From the NCBI RefSeq assembly GCF_988242995.1, contig NZ_OZ547043.1: DNA of 64,000 nucleotides; one strand, 5' to 3'. This document shows, piece after piece, positions 849-14,057 of the stretch. The notes below the pieces were generated by a model. It saw only the letters and a program-made list of their open reading frames with translations. It was not told the DNA's origin and did not search any database. Each line of letters starts with the position of its first letter. Positions within the stretch are counted from its first letter, which is position 1. Both the position numbers and the translations under genes were made by a program.

Positions 849-3800
849 TTGAGCCAGGAATACACTGAAGACAAAGAAGTCACATTGACAAAGTTAAGTA
901 GCGGCCGCCGCCTTCTGGAGGCGTTGCTGATCCTTATTGTCCTGTTTGCCGTCTGGTTGATGGCTGCCTTACTAAGCTTTAACCCTTCGGACCCCAGCTG
1001 GTCGCAAACGGCCTGGCATGAACCTATCCATAATTTAGGTGGGATGCCCGGTGCGTGGCTGGCAGATACGCTGTTCTTTATTTTTGGCGTGATGGCTTAC
1101 ACCATTCCCGTCATTATTGTCGGCGGTTGTTGGTTTGCCTGGCGTCATCAGTCCAGCGACGAATACATTGATTATTTTGCCGTTTCGCTACGCATCATTG
1201 GCGTTTTGGCGCTCATCCTTACCTCCTGTGGTCTGGCGGCAATCAACGCTGACGATATCTGGTATTTTGCCTCCGGTGGCGTCATTGGCAGCTTACTAAG
1301 CACTACGCTACAACCACTGCTACACAGTAGCGGGGGAACTATTGCGCTGCTCTGCGTTTGGGCTGCGGGTCTGACGCTGTTCACCGGTTGGTCATGGGTG
1401 ACCATTGCTGAAAAACTCGGCGGCTGGATTTTAAACATTCTCACCTTCGCCAGTAATCGTACACGTCGCGATGATACCTGGGTCGATGAAGATGAGTATG
1501 AAGATGACGAAGAGTATGAAGATGAAAATCACGGCAAACAGCATGAATCACGCCGTGCCCGTATTCTTCGCGGCGCGCTAGCGCGTCGTAAACGGTTGGC
1601 GGAAAAATTCATTAATCCGATGGGGCGGCAAACAGATGCTGCGTTGTTCTCCGGTAAGCGGATGGATGATGAAGAAGAGATTACCTACACTGCACGCGGT
1701 GTGGCTGCCGACCCTGACGACGTCCTCTTTTCGGGCAATCGTGCAACGCAGCCAGAATATGACGAGTACGATCCATTATTAAACGGTGCGCCAATTACCG
1801 AACCTGTTGCTGTAGCAGCTGCTGCTACCACGGCGACGCAAAGCAGGGCTGCACCGGTTGAACCTGTGACTCAGACGCCACCTGTTGCCTCTGTTGATGT
1901 TGCACCTGCACAACCTACAGTAGCCTGGCAGCCTGTACCGGGGCCACAAACGGGAGAGCCGGTGATTGCTCCGGCACCGGAAGGTTACCCACAGCAGCCA
2001 CAATATGCGCAGCCTGCAGTGCAATATAATGAGCCGCTGCAACAACCTGTACAGCCACAGCAGCCGTATTATGCGCCTGCGGCGGAACAACCTGTTCAGC
2101 AACCGTATTACGCAACTGCGCCGGAACAGTCTGCGCAACAGTCGTATTACGCCCCTGCGCCGGAACAGTCTGCGCAACAGCCGTATTACGCCCCTGCGCC
2201 AGAACAATCGGTGGCAGGTAACGCCTGGCAAGCCGAAGAGCAGCAATCCACTTTTGCTCCACAGTCTACATACCAGACTGAGCAAACTTATCAGCAGCCA
2301 GTCGCTCAGGAGCCGTTGTACCAACAGCCGCAACCTGTTGAACAGCAGCCTGTTGTGGAGCCTGAACCCGTTGTAGAAGAGACAAAACCCGCGCGTCCGC
2401 CGCTTTACTACTTTGAAGAAGTGGAAGAGAAGCGAGCCCGTGAACGTGAACAACTTGCGGTCTGGTATCAACCGATTCCAGAACCGGTTAAAGAACCAGA
2501 ACCGATCAAATCTTCGCTGAAAGCACCTTCTGTTGCAGCAGTACCTCCAGTAGAAGCCGCTGCCGCTGTTTCTCCGCTGGCATCTGGCGTGAAAAAAGCG
2601 ACACTGGCGACGGGGGCTGCCGCAACCGTTGCCGCGCCAGTCTTCAGTCTGGCAAATAGCGGTGGACCGCGTCCGCAGGTCAAAGAGGGGATTGGCCCGC
2701 AGTTGCCACGACCGAAACGTATCCGCGTGCCAACTCGTCGTGAACTGGCGTCTTACGGTATTAAGCTGCCCTCACAGCGTGCGGCAGAAGAAAAAGCCCG
2801 TGAAGCCCAGCGTAATCAGTACGATTCTGGCGATCAGTACAACGATGATGAAATCGATGCGATGCAGCAGGATGAACTGGCACGTCAGTTCGCCCAGACA
2901 CAGCAGCAACGCTATGGCGAACAGTATCAACATGATGTGCCCGTGAACGCAGAAGATGCAGATGCTGCGGCAGAGGCTGAACTGGCTCGTCAGTTTGCGC
3001 AAACTCAACAACAACGTTATTCCGGCGAACAACCGGCTGGGGCGAATCCGTTCTCGCTGGATGATTTTGAATTTTCGCCAATGAAAGCGTTGCTGGATGA
3101 TGGTCCACACGAACCGTTGTTTACGCCAATTGTTGAACCTGTACAGCAGCCGCAACAACCGGTTGCACCGCAGCAGCAGTATCAGCAGCCACAACAGCAG
3201 GTTGCGCCGCAGCCGCAGTATCAGCAGCCGCAACAGCCGGTTGCACCGCAGCAGCAATATCAGCAGCCACAACAACCGGTTGCACCGCAGCCGCAATATC
3301 AGCAGCCGCAACAGCCGGTTGCACCACAGCCGCAATATCAGCAGCCGCAACAGCCAGTTGCGCCGCAGCCGCATGATACCCTGCTTCATCCGCTGTTGAT
3401 GCGCAATGGTGACAGCCGTCCGTTGCATAAACCGACGACGCCGCTGCCTTCTCTGGATTTGCTGACGCCGCCGCCGAGCGAAGTGGAGCCGGTAGATACC
3501 TTTGCGCTTGAACAAATGGCGCGCCTGGTGGAAGCGCGTCTGGCTGATTTCCGTATTAAAGCCGATGTCGTCAATTATTCTCCGGGGCCGGTTATCACTC
3601 GCTTTGAATTGAACCTGGCACCGGGAGTAAAAGCGGCGCGTATTTCTAACTTGTCACGTGACCTTGCCCGTTCACTTTCGACGGTGGCGGTGCGTGTCGT
3701 TGAAGTTATTCCTGGCAAACCCTATGTAGGTCTGGAGTTACCGAATAAAAAACGACAAACCGTTTATCTGCGCGAAGTTTTGGATAACGCCAAATTCCGC

Positions 3801-7109: not shown

Positions 7110-8423
<1,314 letters not shown>

Positions 8424-8444
8424 TACCCAATTTTTCTGAATCTA

Positions 8445-8469
8445 AAAAGCGCCTGCGGGCGCTTTTTTT
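8445..8469 (+). terminator. Rho-independent terminator of serS
   Basis: aaaaagcgcctgcgggcgcttttttt: GC stem agcgcc/ggcgct with a T7 run, directly after the serS stop. Confidence 0.65.
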
Positions 8470-9180
8470 GTGCACAGAAAACCCCCAGCTAGGCTGGGGG
8501 TTCCGGAAAGCTTTCAGCTTTGAGCCAGTTATTAAAACCCCTTTTGATTTGTTAAAACACCTTGCGGTCTGGCAACTGCAAGTGTCAAACAAGAAATCAA
8601 AAGGGGGTCCCAATGGGGGACGAAAAGAGCTTAGCGCACACCCGCTGGAACTGTAAATATCACATAGTTTTTGCGCCGAAATACCGAAGACTGGCGTTTT
8701 ACGGAGAGAAGCGTAGGGCGATAGGCAGTATTTTGAGAAAGCTGTGTGAGTGGAAAAGCGTACGGATTCTGGAAGCAGAGTGCTGCGCAGATCATATCCA
8801 TATGCTTGTGGAAATCCCACCCAAAATGAGCGTATCCGGCTTTATGGGATATCTGAAAGGGAAAAGCAGTCTGATGCTTTACGAGCAGTTTGGGGATTTG
8901 AAATTCAAATACAGAAACAGGGAGTTCTGGTGCCGAGGGTACTATGTCGATACGGTGGGTAAGAACACGGCGAAGATACGTGACTACATAAAGCACCAGC
9001 TTGAAGAGGATAAAATGGGGGAGCAGTTATCGATTCCATATCCGGGCAGCCCGTTTACGGGCCGTAAGTAACGAAGTTGAATGCAAATGTCAGATCGTAT
9101 GCGCCTGTTAGGGCGCGGCTGGTAACAGAGCCTTACAGGCGCATTTGAAAAACCTCCGGCTATGCCGGAGGATATTTATT
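8467..9180 (+). mobile_element. IS200 insertion sequence, copy 1 (IS200/IS605 family, ~714 bp)
   Basis: Identical to the second copy at 13344..14057 over ~714 bp (both boundaries offset by 4877 bp); encodes IS200 TnpA; left-end hairpin aacccccag/ctgggggtt at 8480..8502 and right-end hairpins including cctccggc/gccggagg. Ends are inferred from where the two copies' flanks diverge, so +/- a few bp. Confidence 0.85.
8613..9071 (+). CDS. tnpA: IS200 transposase TnpA (Y1/HUH transposase, 152 aa)
   Basis: MGDEKSLAHTRWNCKYHIVFAPKYRR...HIHMLVEIPPKMSVS...YYVDTVGKN is the IS200 TnpA sequence with the HuH motif and catalytic Tyr; start taken at the internal Met of ORF 8562..9071. Confidence 0.9.
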   Translation: MGDEKSLAHTRWNCKYHIVFAPKYRRLAFYGEKRRAIGSILRKLCEWKSVRILEAECCADHIHMLVEIPPKMSVSGFMGYLKGKSSLMLYEQFGDLKFKYRNREFWCRGYYVDTVGKNTAKIRDYIKHQLEEDKMGEQLSIPYPGSPFTGRK

Positions 9181-9188
9181 GTCTCCCT

Positions 9189-9202
9189 TTGATACCGAAC
9201 AA
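9189..9202 (+). promoter_or_regulatory. Candidate FNR box of the dmsA promoter (TTGATaccgAACAA)
   Basis: Near match to the FNR consensus TTGAT-N4-ATCAA about 170 bp upstream of the dmsA start; dmsABC is known to be FNR-activated. Assignment is from memory, not verified. Confidence 0.4.
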
Positions 9203-9372
9203 TAATTACTCCTCACTTACACGTAATACTACTTTCGAGTGAAAATCTACCTATCTCTTTGATTTTCAAATTATTCGATGTATACAAGCCTATATAGCGA
9301 CCTGCTATAGAAATAATTACACAATACGGTTTGTTACTGGAATCAATCGTGAGCAAGCTTGAGTGAGCCATT

Positions 9373-11817
9373 ATGAAAACGAAAATCCCTGATGCGGTAT
9401 TGGCTGCTGAGGTGAGTCGCCGTGGTTTGGTAAAAACGACAGCGATCGGCGGCCTGGCAATGGCCAGCAGCGCATTAACATTACCTTTTAGTCGGATTGC
9501 GCACGCTGTCGATAGCGCCATTCCAACAAAATCAGACGAAAAGGTTATCTGGAGCGCCTGTACAGTTAACTGTGGTAGTCGCTGCCCGCTACGTATGCAC
9601 GTCGTGGACGGTGAAATCAAATATGTTGAAACGGATAATACTGGCGATGACAACTATGACGGCCTGCACCAGGTGCGCGCCTGTCTGCGTGGTCGTTCCA
9701 TGCGTCGCCGTGTCTACAATCCGGACCGCCTGAAATATCCGATGAAACGAGTCGGGGCGCGCGGTGAAGGCAAATTCGAGCGCATTAGCTGGGAAGAAGC
9801 CTACGACATCATCGCGACCAATATGCAGCGCCTGATCAAAGAGTACGGCAACGAGTCTATCTATCTGAACTATGGTACCGGTACGCTGGGCGGCACCATG
9901 ACCCGCTCCTGGCCGCCGGGAAATACCCTGGTCGCTCGCCTGATGAACTGCTGCGGCGGTTATCTGAACCATTACGGTGACTACTCTTCCGCGCAAATTG
10001 CGGAAGGTTTGAACTATACCTACGGCGGCTGGGCAGATGGTAACAGCCCGTCGGATATCGAAAACAGTAAACTGGTAGTGCTGTTTGGTAATAACCCTGG
10101 CGAAACGCGAATGAGTGGCGGTGGGGTGACTTACTATCTTGAACAGGCGCGCCAGAAATCTAATGCTCGCATGATCATCATCGATCCGCGCTATACCGAC
10201 ACCGGTGCCGGGCGCGAAGATGAGTGGATCCCTATTCGTCCGGGAACAGATGCCGCACTGGTTAACGGTCTGGCGTATGTCATGATCACCGAAAACCTGG
10301 TGGATCAGGCATTCCTCGATAAATTTTGCGTTGGCTACGACGAGAAAACACTGCCAGCCAGTGCGCCGAAAAATGGTCACTATAAAGCTTATATTCTGGG
10401 TGAAGGGCCAGATGGCGTGGCTAAAACGCCGGAATGGGCCTCGCAAATCACCGGTGTTCCGGCAGACAAAATCATCAAATTGGCTCGTGAAATCGGTAGT
10501 ACCAAACCGGCGTTTATCAGCCAGGGATGGGGCCCGCAGCGTCACGCTAACGGTGAAATCGCAACCCGTGCTATCTCGATGCTGGCGATTCTGACCGGTA
10601 ACGTTGGTATTAATGGAGGGAACAGCGGCGCGCGTGAAGGTTCATACAGCTTACCGTTTGTGCGTATGCCGACCCTCGAAAACCCGATCCAGACCAGCAT
10701 TTCTATGTTTATGTGGACCGATGCCATTGAACGTGGCCCGGAAATGACAGCGCTGCGTGATGGTGTGCGCGGGAAAGATAAGCTGGATGTGCCGATCAAA
10801 ATGATCTGGAACTATGCCGGTAACTGCCTGATTAACCAGCATTCTGAAATCAACCGTACCCATGAAATCCTTCAGGATGATAAGAAGTGCGAGCTGATTG
10901 TGGTTATCGACTGCCACATGACCTCATCAGCGAAATATGCTGACATCCTGCTGCCTGACTGCACCGCTTCCGAACAGATGGACTTTGCACTGGATGCATC
11001 CTGCGGGAATATGTCTTACGTGATTTTCAACGATCAGGTGATTAAACCGCGCTTTGAATGTAAGACCATCTATGAAATGACCAGCGAACTGGCAAAACGT
11101 CTTGGCGTTGAGCAACAGTTTACTGAAGGCCGTACACAGGAAGAGTGGATGCGGCATCTGTATGCCCAGTCGCGGGAAGCGATTCCTGAACTGCCAACGT
11201 TTGAAGAGTTCCGCAAGCAGGGGATCTTTAAAAAGCGCGACCCACAAGGGCACCACGTTGCTTATAAAGCTTTCCGTGAAGATCCTCAGGCAAATCCACT
11301 GACCACGCCATCGGGTAAAATTGAGATTTATTCGCAGGCGCTGGCTGACATTGCCGCGACCTGGGAATTGCCAGAAGGCGATGTGATCGATCCACTGCCG
11401 ATCTATACGCCGGGCTTTGAAAGTTATCAGGATCCGCTGAACAAACAATATCCGCTGCAGCTTACTGGCTTCCACTACAAATCTCGCGTTCACTCAACTT
11501 ACGGCAACGTTGATGTGCTGAAAGCAGCTTGCCGTCAGGAAATGTGGATCAACCCGCTTGATGCACAAAAACGCGGTATCAACAACGGCGATAAAGTCAG
11601 GATCTTTAACGATCGTGGTGAGGTTCATATTGAGGCGAAAGTGACGCCACGAATGATGCCGGGTGTGGTCGCACTGGGTGAAGGTGCCTGGTATGACCCG
11701 GATGCAAAACGTGTCGATAAGGGCGGTTGTATCAACGTACTGACCACTCAACGTCCGTCTCCTCTCGCGAAGGGGAATCCGTCGCATACAAACCTTGTTC
11801 AGGTTGAAAAGGTGTAA
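9373..11817 (+). CDS. dmsA: Anaerobic DMSO reductase catalytic subunit DmsA (molybdopterin, Tat signal)
   Basis: ORF 9373..11817, 814 aa; twin-arginine signal SRRGLVKTTAIGGLAMASSALTLPFSRIAHA and CTVNCGSRC FeS motif. Confidence 0.95.
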   Translation: MKTKIPDAVLAAEVSRRGLVKTTAIGGLAMASSALTLPFSRIAHAVDSAIPTKSDEKVIWSACTVNCGSRCPLRMHVVDGEIKYVETDNTGDDNYDGLHQVRACLRGRSMRRRVYNPDRLKYPMKRVGARGEGKFERISWEEAYDIIATNMQRLIKEYGNESIYLNYGTGTLGGTMTRSWPPGNTLVARLMNCCGGYLNHYGDYSSAQIAEGLNYTYGGWADGNSPSDIENSKLVVLFGNNPGETRMSGGGVTYYLEQARQKSNARMIIIDPRYTDTGAGREDEWIPIRPGTDAALVNGLAYVMITENLVDQAFLDKFCVGYDEKTLPASAPKNGHYKAYILGEGPDGVAKTPEWASQITGVPADKIIKLAREIGSTKPAFISQGWGPQRHANGEIATRAISMLAILTGNVGINGGNSGAREGSYSLPFVRMPTLENPIQTSISMFMWTDAIERGPEMTALRDGVRGKDKLDVPIKMIWNYAGNCLINQHSEINRTHEILQDDKKCELIVVIDCHMTSSAKYADILLPDCTASEQMDFALDASCGNMSYVIFNDQVIKPRFECKTIYEMTSELAKRLGVEQQFTEGRTQEEWMRHLYAQSREAIPELPTFEEFRKQGIFKKRDPQGHHVAYKAFREDPQANPLTTPSGKIEIYSQALADIAATWELPEGDVIDPLPIYTPGFESYQDPLNKQYPLQLTGFHYKSRVHSTYGNVDVLKAACRQEMWINPLDAQKRGINNGDKVRIFNDRGEVHIEAKVTPRMMPGVVALGEGAWYDPDAKRVDKGGCINVLTTQRPSPLAKGNPSHTNLVQVEKV

Positions 11818-11827
11818 GGAGTAACCG

Positions 11828-12445
11828 ATGACAACCCAGTATGGATTTTTAATTGATTCCAGCCGTTGCACCGGTTGCAAAACCTGCGAGCTGGCCTGTA
11901 AAGACTATAAAGATCTGACGCCGGAAGTCAGCTTCCGCCGCATTTATGAATATGCTGGCGGTGACTGGCAGGAAGATAACGGTGTCTGGCATCAGAACGT
12001 GTTTGCCTACTATCTGTCGATTTCATGTAACCACTGCGAAGATCCGGCTTGTACTAAAGTCTGCCCGAGTGGTGCGATGCATAAACGTGAAGATGGTTTT
12101 GTTGTAGTCGATGAAGATGTGTGCATTGGCTGCCGCTACTGCCATATGGCTTGCCCGTATGGCGCACCGCAATATAACGAAACGAAAGGCCATATGACCA
12201 AATGCGATGGTTGTTATGACCGTGTTGCGGAGGGGAAAAAGCCGATCTGTGTTGAATCTTGCCCGCTGCGGGCGCTGGATTTCGGCCCTATCGACGAGCT
12301 GCGTAAAAAACATGGCGATCTGGCGGCCGTTGCGCCGTTGCCGCGAGCTCACTTTACCAAACCGAATATTGTGATCAAACCCAATGCCAACAGCCGCCCG
12401 ACCGGGGATACCACTGGCTATCTGGCAAACCCGAAGGAGGTGTGA
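11828..12445 (+). CDS. dmsB: DMSO reductase iron-sulfur subunit DmsB (4x[4Fe-4S])
   Basis: ORF 11828..12445, 205 aa, several CxxCxxCxxxCP ferredoxin motifs. Confidence 0.95.
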   Translation: MTTQYGFLIDSSRCTGCKTCELACKDYKDLTPEVSFRRIYEYAGGDWQEDNGVWHQNVFAYYLSISCNHCEDPACTKVCPSGAMHKREDGFVVVDEDVCIGCRYCHMACPYGAPQYNETKGHMTKCDGCYDRVAEGKKPICVESCPLRALDFGPIDELRKKHGDLAAVAPLPRAHFTKPNIVIKPNANSRPTGDTTGYLANPKEV

Positions 12446-12446
12446 G

Positions 12447-13310
12447 ATGGGAAGTGGATGGCATGAATGGCCGCTGATGATCTTCACGGTCTTCGGGCAA
12501 TGTGTAGCGGGTGGTTTTATCGTTCTGGCTTTGGCGCTGCTCAAAGGCGACCTGCGAGCAGAAGCCCAGCAGCGTGTTATTGCCTGCATGTTTGGTTTAT
12601 GGGTGCTGATGGGCATTGGCTTTATCGCCTCTATGCTTCATCTTGGTTCACCGATGCGCGCCTTTAACTCGCTCAACCGGGTAGGGGCTTCAGCACTCAG
12701 TAACGAAATCGCCAGCGGTTCGATCTTTTTTGCTGTTGGTGGCATCGGCTGGTTACTGGCAATGCTGAAAAAGCTGTCACCGGCATTGCGTACGCTGTGG
12801 CTGGTGGTGACGATGGTTCTTGGCGTCATCTTTGTCTGGATGATGGTGCGTGTCTATAACAGCATCGATACCGTACCCACCTGGTACAGCATCTGGACAC
12901 CGATGGGCTTCTTCCTGACGATGTTCATGGGCGGCCCGTTACTGGGTTACCTGTTGCTGAGTCTGGCTGGCGTCGATGGCTGGGCGATGCGTCTGCTGCC
13001 AGCCATTTCTGTACTGGCACTGGTAGTGAGTGGCGTGATGTCAGTGATGCAGGGCGCAGAGCTGGCGACTATTCATAGTTCTGTGCAGCAGGCCGCAGCG
13101 CTGGTGCCGGACTATGGTGCGCTGATGTCCTGGCGGATCGTGCTTTTGGCTGTTGCCCTGTGTTTGTGGATTGCACCACAGCTAAAAGGTTATCAGCCTG
13201 CGGTTCCGCTACTATCCGTCTCATTCATTTTGCTTCTGGCAGGAGAATTAATCGGCCGCGGCGTATTCTATGGTTTGCATATGACCGTGGGGATGGCCGT
13301 CGCAAGCTAA
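12447..13310 (+). CDS. dmsC: DMSO reductase membrane anchor subunit DmsC
   Basis: MGSGWHEWPLMIFTVFGQCVAGGFIVLALALL within ORF 12384..13310; start chosen at the Met following an aggagg RBS, 1 bp after the dmsB stop. Confidence 0.9.
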   Translation: MGSGWHEWPLMIFTVFGQCVAGGFIVLALALLKGDLRAEAQQRVIACMFGLWVLMGIGFIASMLHLGSPMRAFNSLNRVGASALSNEIASGSIFFAVGGIGWLLAMLKKLSPALRTLWLVVTMVLGVIFVWMMVRVYNSIDTVPTWYSIWTPMGFFLTMFMGGPLLGYLLLSLAGVDGWAMRLLPAISVLALVVSGVMSVMQGAELATIHSSVQQAAALVPDYGALMSWRIVLLAVALCLWIAPQLKGYQPAVPLLSVSFILLLAGELIGRGVFYGLHMTVGMAVAS

Positions 13311-13318
13311 TCAGTAAC

Positions 13319-13346
13319 AACCGGGGTTTCGACCCCGGTTCTCTTT
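13319..13346. terminator. Hairpin after dmsC (aaccgggg...ccccggtt), probably the native bidirectional dmsC/ycaC terminator
   Basis: Perfect 8-bp GC-rich stem with a T-rich tail ctcttt; lies between the dmsC stop and the left end of IS200 copy 2. Confidence 0.5.
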
Positions 13347-14057
13347 GTGCACAGAAAACCCCCAGCTAGGCTGGGGGTTCCGGAAAGCTTTCAGCTTTGA
13401 GCCAGTTATTAAAACCCCTTTTGATTTGTTAAAACACCTTGCGGTCTGGCAACTGCAAGTGTCAAACAAGAAATCAAAAGGGGGTCCCAATGGGGGACGA
13501 AAAGAGCTTAGCGCACACCCGCTGGAACTGTAAATATCACATAGTTTTTGCGCCGAAATACCGAAGACTGGCGTTTTACGGAGAGAAGCGTAGGGCGATA
13601 GGCAGTATTTTGAGAAAGCTGTGTGAGTGGAAAAGCGTACGGATTCTGGAAGCAGAGTGCTGCGCAGATCATATCCATATGCTTGTGGAAATCCCACCCA
13701 AAATGAGCGTATCCGGCTTTATGGGATATCTGAAAGGGAAAAGCAGTCTGATGCTTTACGAGCAGTTTGGGGATTTGAAATTCAAATACAGAAACAGGGA
13801 GTTCTGGTGCCGAGGGTACTATGTCGATACGGTGGGTAAGAACACGGCGAAGATACGTGACTACATAAAGCACCAGCTTGAAGAGGATAAAATGGGGGAG
13901 CAGTTATCGATTCCATATCCGGGCAGCCCGTTTACGGGCCGTAAGTAACGAAGTTGAATGCAAATGTCAGATCGTATGCGCCTGTTAGGGCGCGGCTGGT
14001 AACAGAGCCTTACAGGCGCATTTGAAAAACCTCCGGCTATGCCGGAGGATATTTATT
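13344..14057 (+). mobile_element. IS200 insertion sequence, copy 2 (same orientation as copy 1)
   Basis: Identical to 8467..9180 judging by identical six-frame ORFs and visible sequence; flanks differ on both sides. Right end abuts the ycaC stop codon. Confidence 0.85.
13490..13948 (+). CDS. tnpA: IS200 transposase TnpA (second copy)
   Basis: Translation identical to the TnpA at 8613..9071. Confidence 0.9.
   Translation: MGDEKSLAHTRWNCKYHIVFAPKYRRLAFYGEKRRAIGSILRKLCEWKSVRILEAECCADHIHMLVEIPPKMSVSGFMGYLKGKSSLMLYEQFGDLKFKYRNREFWCRGYYVDTVGKNTAKIRDYIKHQLEEDKMGEQLSIPYPGSPFTGRK

Follow-up and report, generated by a model that had tools for sequence, protein, structure and literature searches.

The window, a stretch of 64,000 nucleotides of DNA, carries the serine-tRNA ligase gene serS upstream of the dmsABC operon, with one copy of IS200 standing between them and a second, identical copy behind dmsC. 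The features of the locus and the evidence for each are collected in Table 1.

Table 1. Features of the serS-dmsABC locus, with positions numbered from the first nucleotide of the window.
Feature	Position	Strand	Remarks
serS (serine-tRNA ligase)	7131-8423	+	ORF list and RefSeq annotation of syntenic loci; upstream of dmsABC and co-oriented
serS intrinsic terminator, AAAAAGCGCCTGCGGGCGCTTTTTTT	8444-8469	+	Intact; -15.4 kcal/mol on +, -14.1 on -
IS200 copy 1	8470-9180	+	711 bp; ends set by the K-12 empty site and the comparison of the two copies
IS200 left-end hairpin	8480-8502	+	-18.7 kcal/mol; nt 12-34 of IS200; published bidirectional terminator
tnpA 5'UTR / art200 (STnc490) region	8480-8603	+	Rfam RF01405, 146.4 bits (gathering score 56)
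tnpA	8613-9071	+	Y1 HUH transposase, 152 aa, intact
STnc130 match (Rfam RF02084)	9140-9282	-	Putative antisense sRNA of the serS-dmsA spacer
IS200 right-end subterminal hairpin, CCTCCGGC-TAT-GCCGGAGG	9153-9171	either	8-bp stem, 7 GC
Right-end tail, ATATTTATT	9172-9180	+	About -65 to -57 of the dmsA promoter, where the serS T-run stood
Native 8-nt spacer, GTCTCCCT	9181-9188	+	Insertion point to FNR box; same in K-12
FNR box (very probable), TTGATaccgAACAA	9189-9202	+	dmsA class II promoter, about -48 to -35
Predicted NarL heptamers, TACTCCT at 9207 and TACCTAT at 9248	9207-9254	+	Perfect matches in TACYYMT scan; downstream of the IS
Candidate -10 hexamer, TAATAC	9224-9229	+	Located where the -41.5 rule expects it
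Predicted dmsA start	about 9237	+	From box centre 9195.5 + 41.5
dmsABC	9373-13310	+	dmsA 9373-11817, dmsB 11828-12445, dmsC 12447-13310; frames all intact; synteny with annotated loci
dmsC intrinsic terminator, AACCGGGGTTTCGACCCCGGTTCTCTTT	13319-13346	+	-15.6 kcal/mol; target of copy 2
IS200 copy 2	13347-14057	+	100% the same as copy 1, same orientation

The size of copy 1 agrees with that expected for the family (~707-711 bp), and the translation of its tnpA, which shows the HIH and YY motifs, matched the NCBIfam model NF033573 (transpos_IS200) with 144.3 bits (cut-off 55, E = 2e-42). Alignment to the empty site of K-12 revealed neither terminal inverted repeats nor a target duplication, the register of the ends being ambiguous by 1-2 nt owing to T's. 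A first-pass annotation of this DNA had placed the last shared base of the right end at about 9180, and the two-copy comparison gave exactly 9180; the hairpin it had described in the right end was likewise present and was matched by a terminator scan on both strands. This hairpin lies 9 nt from the end of IS200, and the right end finishes in TATT while target flanks finish in TNTT. By analogy we presume it to be the recognition hairpin of TnpA, and together with the TNTT/TATT ends it is consistent with the IS200/IS605 family mechanism, in which subterminal hairpins are bound by TnpA and guide/target tetranucleotides set cleavage (PMC6006769). The left-end hairpin has been described as a bidirectional terminator (PMC4513863, PMC5435999), and its position agrees with that given in PMC4513863. 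The GC skew of the + strand was +0.041 and positive in 7 of 8 bins, both IS200 copies being + oriented, which indirectly points to the lagging-strand template as the active strand of IS200 (origin and terminus lie outside the window). We found no structural differences from the IS200 of Salmonella and E. coli (IS200C alleles; IS1541 in Yersinia), which likewise measures about 710 bp with a lone tnpA encoding a 152-aa Y1 HUH transposase, has a left-end terminator hairpin (nt 11-33), a 5'UTR stem-loop with art200 and a subterminal right-end hairpin, and lacks inverted repeats and target duplications.

Alignment with K-12 gave the empty site GCGCTTTTTTT^GTCTCCCTTTGATACCGAACAA, the junction reading GCGCTTTTTTT^GTCTCCC. 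The serS-dmsA spacer measured 238 nt in K-12 and was exactly 711 nt longer in the window (949 nt), and the insertion was clean, with no bases deleted and none duplicated. Copy 1 begins exactly where the T-run of the serS terminator stops, its other end adjoining the 8 nt that lead up to the FNR box, and from 9181 to the ATG of dmsA 192 of the 193 nt were the same as in K-12. Apart from the sole SNP (at 9301), the FNR box, -10 region, NarL heptamers and leader are identical to those of the class II dmsA P1 promoter of K-12, in which the serS terminator lies upstream of -57 where the window has the right end of IS200 instead. Because the IS adjoins the T-run exactly, the DNA upstream of about -57 in IS-free strains is the serS terminator and is not specific to dmsA; IS200 has displaced this terminator, which abuts the dmsA promoter in IS-free strains, by 711 bp. 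The first-pass annotation had claimed that the IS ends about 9 bp from the FNR box and that its right end replaced upstream promoter elements, and had proposed the K-12 comparison as a check. The adjacency to the box was borne out, with a measured gap of 8 nt, but the comparison contradicted the supposed loss of promoter elements, only the serS terminator having been displaced.

Compared with TTGAT-N4-ATCAA, TTGATaccgAACAA agreed at 9 of 10 consensus positions and was the top match in the serS-dmsA spacer, the runner-up (8 of 10) lying inside tnpA. Direct activation of dmsABC by FNR from a site at -41.5 has been reported (Myers et al. 2013, Table 1, PMC3688515), and the sentence of Bearson 2002 that is quoted in PMC11363960 describes the dmsA promoter as class II with FNR at -41.5. 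The ChIP peaks of Myers 2013 were given at 939,992 for FNR and 940,050 for anaerobic sigma-70 (PMC3688515). The spacer match, the published position and the ChIP peaks together back the earlier reading that TTGATaccgAACAA is very probably the dmsA FNR site. With the offset assumed for converting the published coordinates, the peaks fit TTGATaccgAACAA and a start near 9237. The abstract of Bearson 2002 reportedly gives TTGATaccgAACAA as the wild-type Fnr site. A full-text literature search for TTGATaccgAACAA returned no match, and one for the positions of ModE or IHF sites at dmsA returned nothing usable. In K-12, the 110 nt upstream of the box contained no perfect NarL heptamer, and no better FNR box was present upstream of the insertion point. 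IS200 has displaced no recognisable regulatory site. A new hybrid promoter at the junction was also considered and rejected, as the sole sigma-70-like match, TTGTCT-16-AATAAT (9179-9206), is the same in K-12; TTGTCT (9179-9184) is unchanged because the T-run and the IS both end in TT.

The right-end hairpin (-15.9 kcal/mol on the + strand, -15.5 on the -) proved as stable as the displaced serS terminator (-15.4 and -14.1, respectively). Its two tails differed, with a good one on the - strand (UUUUUCAAAU) and an interrupted one with a poor U-tract on the + strand (AUAUUUAUU). Along the + strand stand three terminator-like hairpins, that of serS and one at either end of IS200; the - strand has the right-end hairpin followed by TTTTT. 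According to published work, about 85% of incoming transcripts stop at the left-end terminator (PMC5435999), and the tnpA promoter is weak (PMC5435999, PMC4513863). From this arrangement, transcription from serS would already be halted at the intact serS terminator and then at the left-end terminator of IS200, while transcripts from tnpA may run into the dmsA promoter, given the poor U-tract on the + strand.

On the minus strand, the insertion also touches a match to STnc130, a putative enterobacterial sRNA antisense to the dmsA promoter, which scored 100.9 bits here and 140.1 bits at the uninterrupted K-12 locus (gathering score 55). The body of the match (9282-9181) is native and its 3' hairpin comes from the right end of IS200, replacing the serS terminator, which matches the terminator part of the Rfam STnc130 model on this strand. 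IS200 therefore separates the putative STnc130 from its native terminator. STnc130 has been given only as a 'putative sRNA' (PMC3632133), and the match in the window mainly reflects conservation of the spacer.

We consider copy 1 to be most likely an ordinary and nearly neutral IS200 insertion, the position of which was set by the target preference of the element and not by dmsA. The insertion is conservative and leaves the FNR box, -10 region, NarL heptamers, leader and dmsABC intact. The region from about -57 to -84 now consists of the right end of IS200, whose 8-bp GC hairpin and tail ATATTTATT closely resemble the displaced GC hairpin followed by TTTTTTT. Because of this resemblance, the A/T-rich stretch just upstream of FNR, the expected seat of the alpha C-terminal domain of RNA polymerase at a class II promoter, is kept. 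Insulation would be retained as well, on the + strand by all three hairpins and on the - strand by the right-end hairpin with its TTTTT. We predict essentially normal FNR-dependent induction of dmsABC and a neutral phenotype, with at most small effects from weak tnpA read-out or an altered upstream contact; given the anatomy of the insertion, a small effect on anaerobic induction is to be expected.

A meaningful change in the anaerobic regulation of dmsABC, whether by removal or displacement of upstream DNA, by read-through from tnpA or by an altered edge of regulator binding, is an unlikely outcome. It would draw on the IS ending at -57, within the zone of the alpha C-terminal domain and possibly of distal NarL-phosphate contacts, on the weak U-tract of the + strand tail, and on the altered 3' end of the putative antisense STnc130. 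The sequence upstream of -66 does differ, and contacts of the alpha C-terminal domain or DNA bending could be affected. NarL-phosphate reportedly protects a region of about 97 bp that covers part of the FNR and polymerase sites (Bearson et al. 2002); should this footprint reach upstream beyond -57, IS DNA now takes the place of its distal part, and a change in nitrate repression could follow. Against such a change, nothing was deleted, the DNA displaced is in IS-free strains simply the serS terminator, and its substitute is a look-alike hairpin with an A/T tail. The FNR box, the -10 hexamer and the perfect NarL heptamers all lie unchanged downstream of the IS, and a weak tnpA promoter combines with three insulating hairpins on the + strand.

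Since copy 2 stands behind the dmsC terminator, dmsABC is bracketed by IS200. Two identical, co-oriented copies enclosing the operon exactly could suggest a composite mobile unit, IS200-dmsABC-IS200, and the left end of copy 1 and the right end of copy 2 are in principle usable together. We rejected a composite transposon, which is extremely improbable here, as none of 72,556 plasmid records covered at least 80% of the unit. Furthermore, the two copies occurred together in none of 5426 complete E. coli genomes, dmsABC is at its normal chromosomal place, and each copy stands behind its own terminator, as independent insertions would. The two direct copies nevertheless make dmsABC liable to deletion or amplification via homologous recombination.

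The occupancy of the two sites was compared across these 5426 complete E. coli RefSeq genomes, a set to which the strain of the window does not belong and in which the closest dmsABC had 99.5% identity. IS200 occupies roughly 16,000 places in these genomes. The dmsC site was occupied in 18 genomes, and the IS200 of the window differed at 3 of 711 positions from the dmsC-ycaC copy of strain EC21Z-151. The serS-dmsA site was occupied in only two genomes (S1-CAM-04-C and PCN033), in both cases by an IS200C allele that differed from the window IS200 at 29-30 of 711 positions, the flanks being nearly identical. One could see in these three strains a single old insertion, inherited or recombined and with the IS later gene-converted, in place of independent hits; the three junctions agree except for a shift of one T in PCN033, and S1-CAM-04-C and PCN033 carry nearly the same allele. 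We think this rather doubtful, however, since the IS of the window differs at those 29-30 positions despite the nearly identical flanks. It also shares 100% identity with the other copy, at a distance of 4.9 kb, as would be expected after a recent local hop. Repeated hits at the serS site are expected because the rule of insertion at terminators, described below, is general.

In E. coli, each of the 11 distinct IS200 sites that we examined lay directly 3' of a terminator-like hairpin and T-run. Ten of these follow the terminator of an upstream co-oriented gene or operon (serS, dmsC, the tRNA Gly-Cys-Leu operon, rpmG, ydcH, dsbB, rluB, aroA, rnb and serA), and the eleventh, upstream of ivbL, follows a terminator-like hairpin with no upstream gene annotated within the fetched stretch. 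In other bacteria, 96 of 120 unique IS200 sites passed a strict hairpin-plus-T test, compared to 4 of 342 control windows, and the mean fold energy was -18.2 kcal/mol at these sites versus -7.6 in the controls. The target flank ended in TNTT, with T at -2 in 118 and T at -5 in 115 of the 120 sites, and the orientation of IS200 was always co-directional with the adjacent terminator. Further copies in Y. pestis were inserted directly behind a right end, forming tandem copies, so the right end of IS200 itself acts as a target.

On our reading, IS200 integrates directly 3' of an intrinsic terminator hairpin and T-run, on the strand that is the lagging-strand template. With only 8 nt between the end of the serS terminator and the FNR box, an IS200 landing there is bound to end 8 nt from the box. 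More broadly, IS200-group transposases may choose intrinsic terminators as structural mimics of their own right end (hairpin plus T-rich tail, TNTT), with a terminator-like hairpin at each IS end preserving the insulation of the neighbours and the shape of promoter-proximal DNA, a 'safe landing' to which we give an even chance of being right. As far as could be verified, we found no experimental demonstration of terminator targeting by IS200 in the literature. Terminator-like sequences upstream of ISs have been found to be strongest for IS200/IS605 (preprint 10.1101/2025.07.22.666184).

The same association could arise from purifying selection, with harmless insertions surviving and the enzyme having no such preference. 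The 3' intergenic regions are safe places, and the preprint interprets the terminators that precede ISs as a curb on the expression of transposase (10.1101/2025.07.22.666184). Survival of harmless insertions could partly account for the association, but we judge it improbable as the explanation in place of a target preference, considering the nucleotide precision with which the IS begins right after the T-run, the resemblance of the TNTT flank to the element's own TATT, and the invariable co-directionality with the terminator. Selection alone would also hardly account for the tandem copies that follow another right end.

A comparable habit is known from group IIC introns, whose insertion sites follow intrinsic terminators or attC hairpins. 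Like IS200, they insert directly 3' of a hairpin and T-run, on one strand and in the orientation of the terminator; the introns are retroelements, whereas IS200 is a DNA transposon with a single-strand 'peel and paste' HUH mechanism. As in promoter-altering ISs that form hybrid promoters (IS1, IS2, IS5), the end of the IS abuts a promoter here, but unlike them the IS200 of the window creates no new -35 and removes no promoter element.

The consequence for dmsABC is probably slight, given an undamaged promoter and an IS end that mimics the terminator usually found there. An IS adjoining a regulatory site need not reflect selection for regulation, and at this locus the position is given by the target rule. 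The 'safe landing' rule, if true, could account both for the persistence of tens of copies of an IS that is nearly dormant and for the tandem stacking of copies at one another's right ends. The terminator-mimic rule, if true, would also make IS200 sites predictable, which would aid the reading of IS200 typing patterns in Salmonella, E. coli and Yersinia.

The window keeps the gene order rarA, serS, spacer, dmsABC, ycaC of E. coli K-12 (synteny comparison), and two co-oriented IS200 copies lie within it, one in the serS-dmsA spacer and one behind dmsC, identical at 711/711 positions. The left end of copy 1 also matched Rfam STnc490 (art200 / tnpA 5'UTR region; 146 bits). In K-12 the serS-dmsA spacer is 238 nt long and reads ...AAAAAGCGCCTGCGGGCGCTTTTTTT^GTCTCCCTTTGATACCGAACAA..., where the caret marks the insertion point in the alignment. 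The window carries exactly 711 nt extra at this caret, and the insertion was therefore clean, without loss or duplication. IS200 at this site is an event of an already known kind.

Features of the IS200 and dmsABC region and of related loci
Feature	Position	Strand	Details
serS	7131-8423
serS-dmsA spacer			949 nt in the window
IS200 copy 1	8470-9180		711 bp; within the serS-dmsA spacer
IS200 left-end hairpin	8480-8502		equivalent of the bidirectional terminator published at nt 12-34 of IS200 (PMC4513863)
TnpA of copy 1	8613-9071		152 aa; NCBIfam transpos_IS200, 144 bits
-10-like TAATAC	9224-9229
dmsABC	9373-13310
IS200 copy 2	13347-14057		directly 3' of dmsC; orientation as copy 1
STnc130 match	9282-9140	-	100.9 bits; 3' hairpin is the IS200 right-end hairpin
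Native STnc130 terminator, now separate	8473-8446	-	Rfam match
Y. pestis tandem IS1541/IS200 copies	L069 about 280-369; L070 2661-3393; L072 12605-13337; L116		loci of the left-end hairpin scan

The first-pass annotation had correctly placed the last IS base at 9180, the proposed FNR box TTGATaccgAACAA at 9189-9202 and a right-end hairpin (CCTCCGGC/GCCGGAGG), present at 9153-9171 by sequence and terminator scan. Its observation stood, while its interpretation held only in part: the upstream promoter elements it supposed replaced by IS200 were not, the K-12 empty site showing that the displaced DNA is the serS terminator. Going upstream from the FNR box, the IS-free allele has an 8 nt spacer and then the serS intrinsic terminator. 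Between 9181 and the dmsA ATG, 192/193 positions were identical to K-12, the sole difference in promoter and leader being 9301 (about +65; C in the window, A in K-12), where the C allele is shared with E. coli S1-CAM-04-C. Immediately 5' of this position lies CGATGTATACAAGCCTATATAGCG, an A/T-rich palindromic sequence similar to a ModE-type site.

The box was the best TTGAT-N4-ATCAA match in the spacer, at 9/10 positions, the next best (8/10) lying inside tnpA (consensus scan). The abstract of Bearson 2002 reportedly gives exactly TTGATaccgAACAA. Direct activation of dmsABC by FNR from a site at -41.5 has been described, the ChIP peaks lying at 939,992 for FNR and at 940,050 for sigma-70, the latter strongly anaerobic (Myers et al. 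2013 and supplementary tables, PMC3688515), and PMC11363960 quotes a sentence of Bearson et al. 2002 that gives the class II preference for -41.5. With the box centre at 9195.5, this rule predicts a dmsA start near 9237, relative to which copy 1 ends at -57, and perfect NarL heptamers (candidate sites) were found downstream of the IS at -30 and +12 (consensus scan). After conversion of the published peak coordinates with an offset that we take to be about 777 bp, the FNR peak and the box centre were about 12 bp apart, and the sigma-70 peak and the predicted start about 4 bp; the offset agrees with the position of the serS sigma-70 peak in the same dataset.

The right-end hairpin (-15.9 kcal/mol on the + strand, -15.5 on the - strand) was as stable as the serS terminator (-15.4 and -14.1 kcal/mol). 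It scored as terminator-like on both strands; the tail behind it reads ATATTTATT, an interrupted U-tract, on the + strand and TTTTTCAAAT on the - strand. Subterminal hairpins of this kind are TnpA recognition sites in the family (PMC6006769), and by analogy we infer this role for the hairpin of copy 1. At -57 to -65 of dmsA, K-12 has TTTTTTT(GC) and the window ATATTTATT, followed in both by a GC hairpin, and the junction hexamer TTGTCT is identical in the two alleles. On the + strand, transcripts leaving serS first encounter its own terminator, which is intact, and after it the terminator in the IS left end, where about 85% of the transcripts that enter reportedly stop (PMC5435999); the tnpA promoter is reportedly weak (PMC5435999, PMC4513863). 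Given this look-alike hairpin and A/T DNA, the two terminators and the weak promoter, we would expect FNR-dependent induction of dmsA to be little changed by the IS. Induction may still be affected by tnpA read-out via the weak + strand tail, by upstream polymerase contacts, or at the upstream edge of the NarL-phosphate footprint, which is large at dmsA.

On the minus strand, K-12 STnc130 (Rfam RF02084; 140.1 bits) extends from the dmsA leader over the FNR box into the serS terminator. The insertion splits this putative antisense RNA, and the right-end hairpin substitutes for its terminator. STnc130 is an enterobacterial sRNA listed as putative only (PMC3632133), and the match in the window largely reflects spacer conservation. 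If STnc130 exists, it would have a new end at the IS hairpin and a nearly unchanged length.

Only 2/5426 complete E. coli genomes (S1-CAM-04-C and PCN033) held IS200 at the serS-dmsA site. Both carry the IS200C allele, with 29-30/711 differences from the window's IS200, at a junction identical to the window's or displaced by a single T. A single old insertion with gene conversion afterwards is the rival reading; from these alleles and junctions, we read the occupancy as probable independent hits on one target. PCN033 also has a P2-like prophage (integrase, Cox, replication endonuclease; L002 1-6917) between serS and the terminator remnant plus IS200, and the serS 3' terminator region is thus also a phage attachment site. 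The dmsC-ycaC site held IS200 in 18/5426 genomes, the one carrier examined (EC21Z-151) having an allele 3 nt different from the window's, and 0/5426 held it at both sites. The identity of the window's two copies fits a recent hop of 4.9 kb.

Homologous recombination between the two 100% identical copies that bracket dmsABC would delete or amplify the operon. A composite IS200-dmsABC-IS200 transposon was without any support, no carrier of the unit being found among 72,556 plasmid records (coverage at least 80%). Identity of the window's dmsABC (9181-13346) was at most 99.5% to any of the 5426 genomes and at least 99% in only 34; the strain's lineage is poorly represented in, or absent from, this set. 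Elsewhere in the window (3105-3412), a 39-nt unit occurs in six tandem copies (65-93% identity to the reference copy) in a gene upstream of lolA, by synteny ftsK, and probably encodes the product's repetitive linker.

Both insertions follow a T-run directly (serS, ...GCGCTTTTTTT|GTGCACAG; dmsC, ...CCCCGGTTCTCTTT|GTGCACAG), the EC21Z-151 dmsC site having the same terminator-then-IS pattern. Ten further E. coli IS200 loci represented nine distinct sites. At eight (tRNA Gly-Cys-Leu operon, rpmG, ydcH, dsbB, rluB, aroA, rnb, serA) the IS begins right behind the hairpin-plus-T-run of a gene or operon that precedes it in the same orientation; the ninth site (upstream of ivbL) has the same hairpin type, with no preceding gene annotated in the stretch retrieved. 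Thus 11/11 distinct sites, the window's two included, lie behind a terminator-like hairpin plus T-run. The 8 nt distance to the FNR box arises because the serS terminator ends there, a by-product of IS200 landing behind it. The + strand GC skew of the window is positive, which indirectly places the top strand of the IS on the template of lagging-strand synthesis, the side expected from the family mechanism.

A left-end hairpin scan with one genome per species gave 120 unique flanks (Yersinia, Vibrio, Brenneria, Mailhella, Bacillota MAGs and others). A strict test (perfect stem plus T-tail) was passed by 96/120 flanks versus 4/342 control windows 130-300 nt further upstream, with mean fold energies of -18.2 and -7.6 kcal/mol, respectively; the 24 failing flanks were mostly still terminator-like, with a mismatch or larger loop. 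Flanks end in TNTT (T at -2 in 118/120, at -5 in 115/120), resembling IS200's own last four bases, TATT. Insertion behind such hairpins was nucleotide-precise across very different taxa. The exact 23-nt hairpin also occurred, often at contig ends, in MAGs (L004-L064) assigned to Bacillota, Saccharibacteria, Elusimicrobia, Oxalobacter and Desulfovibrionaceae (Mailhella); either IS200 has spread horizontally very widely, or these MAGs contain binning contamination.

Terminator-like sequences upstream of ISs were most enriched for IS200/IS605 in a 2025 preprint (10.1101/2025.07.22.666184), which interprets them as limiting transposase expression. In the Y. pestis tandems the left end abuts another copy's right-end hairpin and tail (…CCTCCGGCTATGCCGGAGGATATTTATT|GTGCCCAGAA), and the right end thus itself behaves as an insertion target. 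The most interesting by-product of this analysis is the apparent targeting of terminators to the nucleotide by the IS200 group, together with a right end that is itself built like a terminator.
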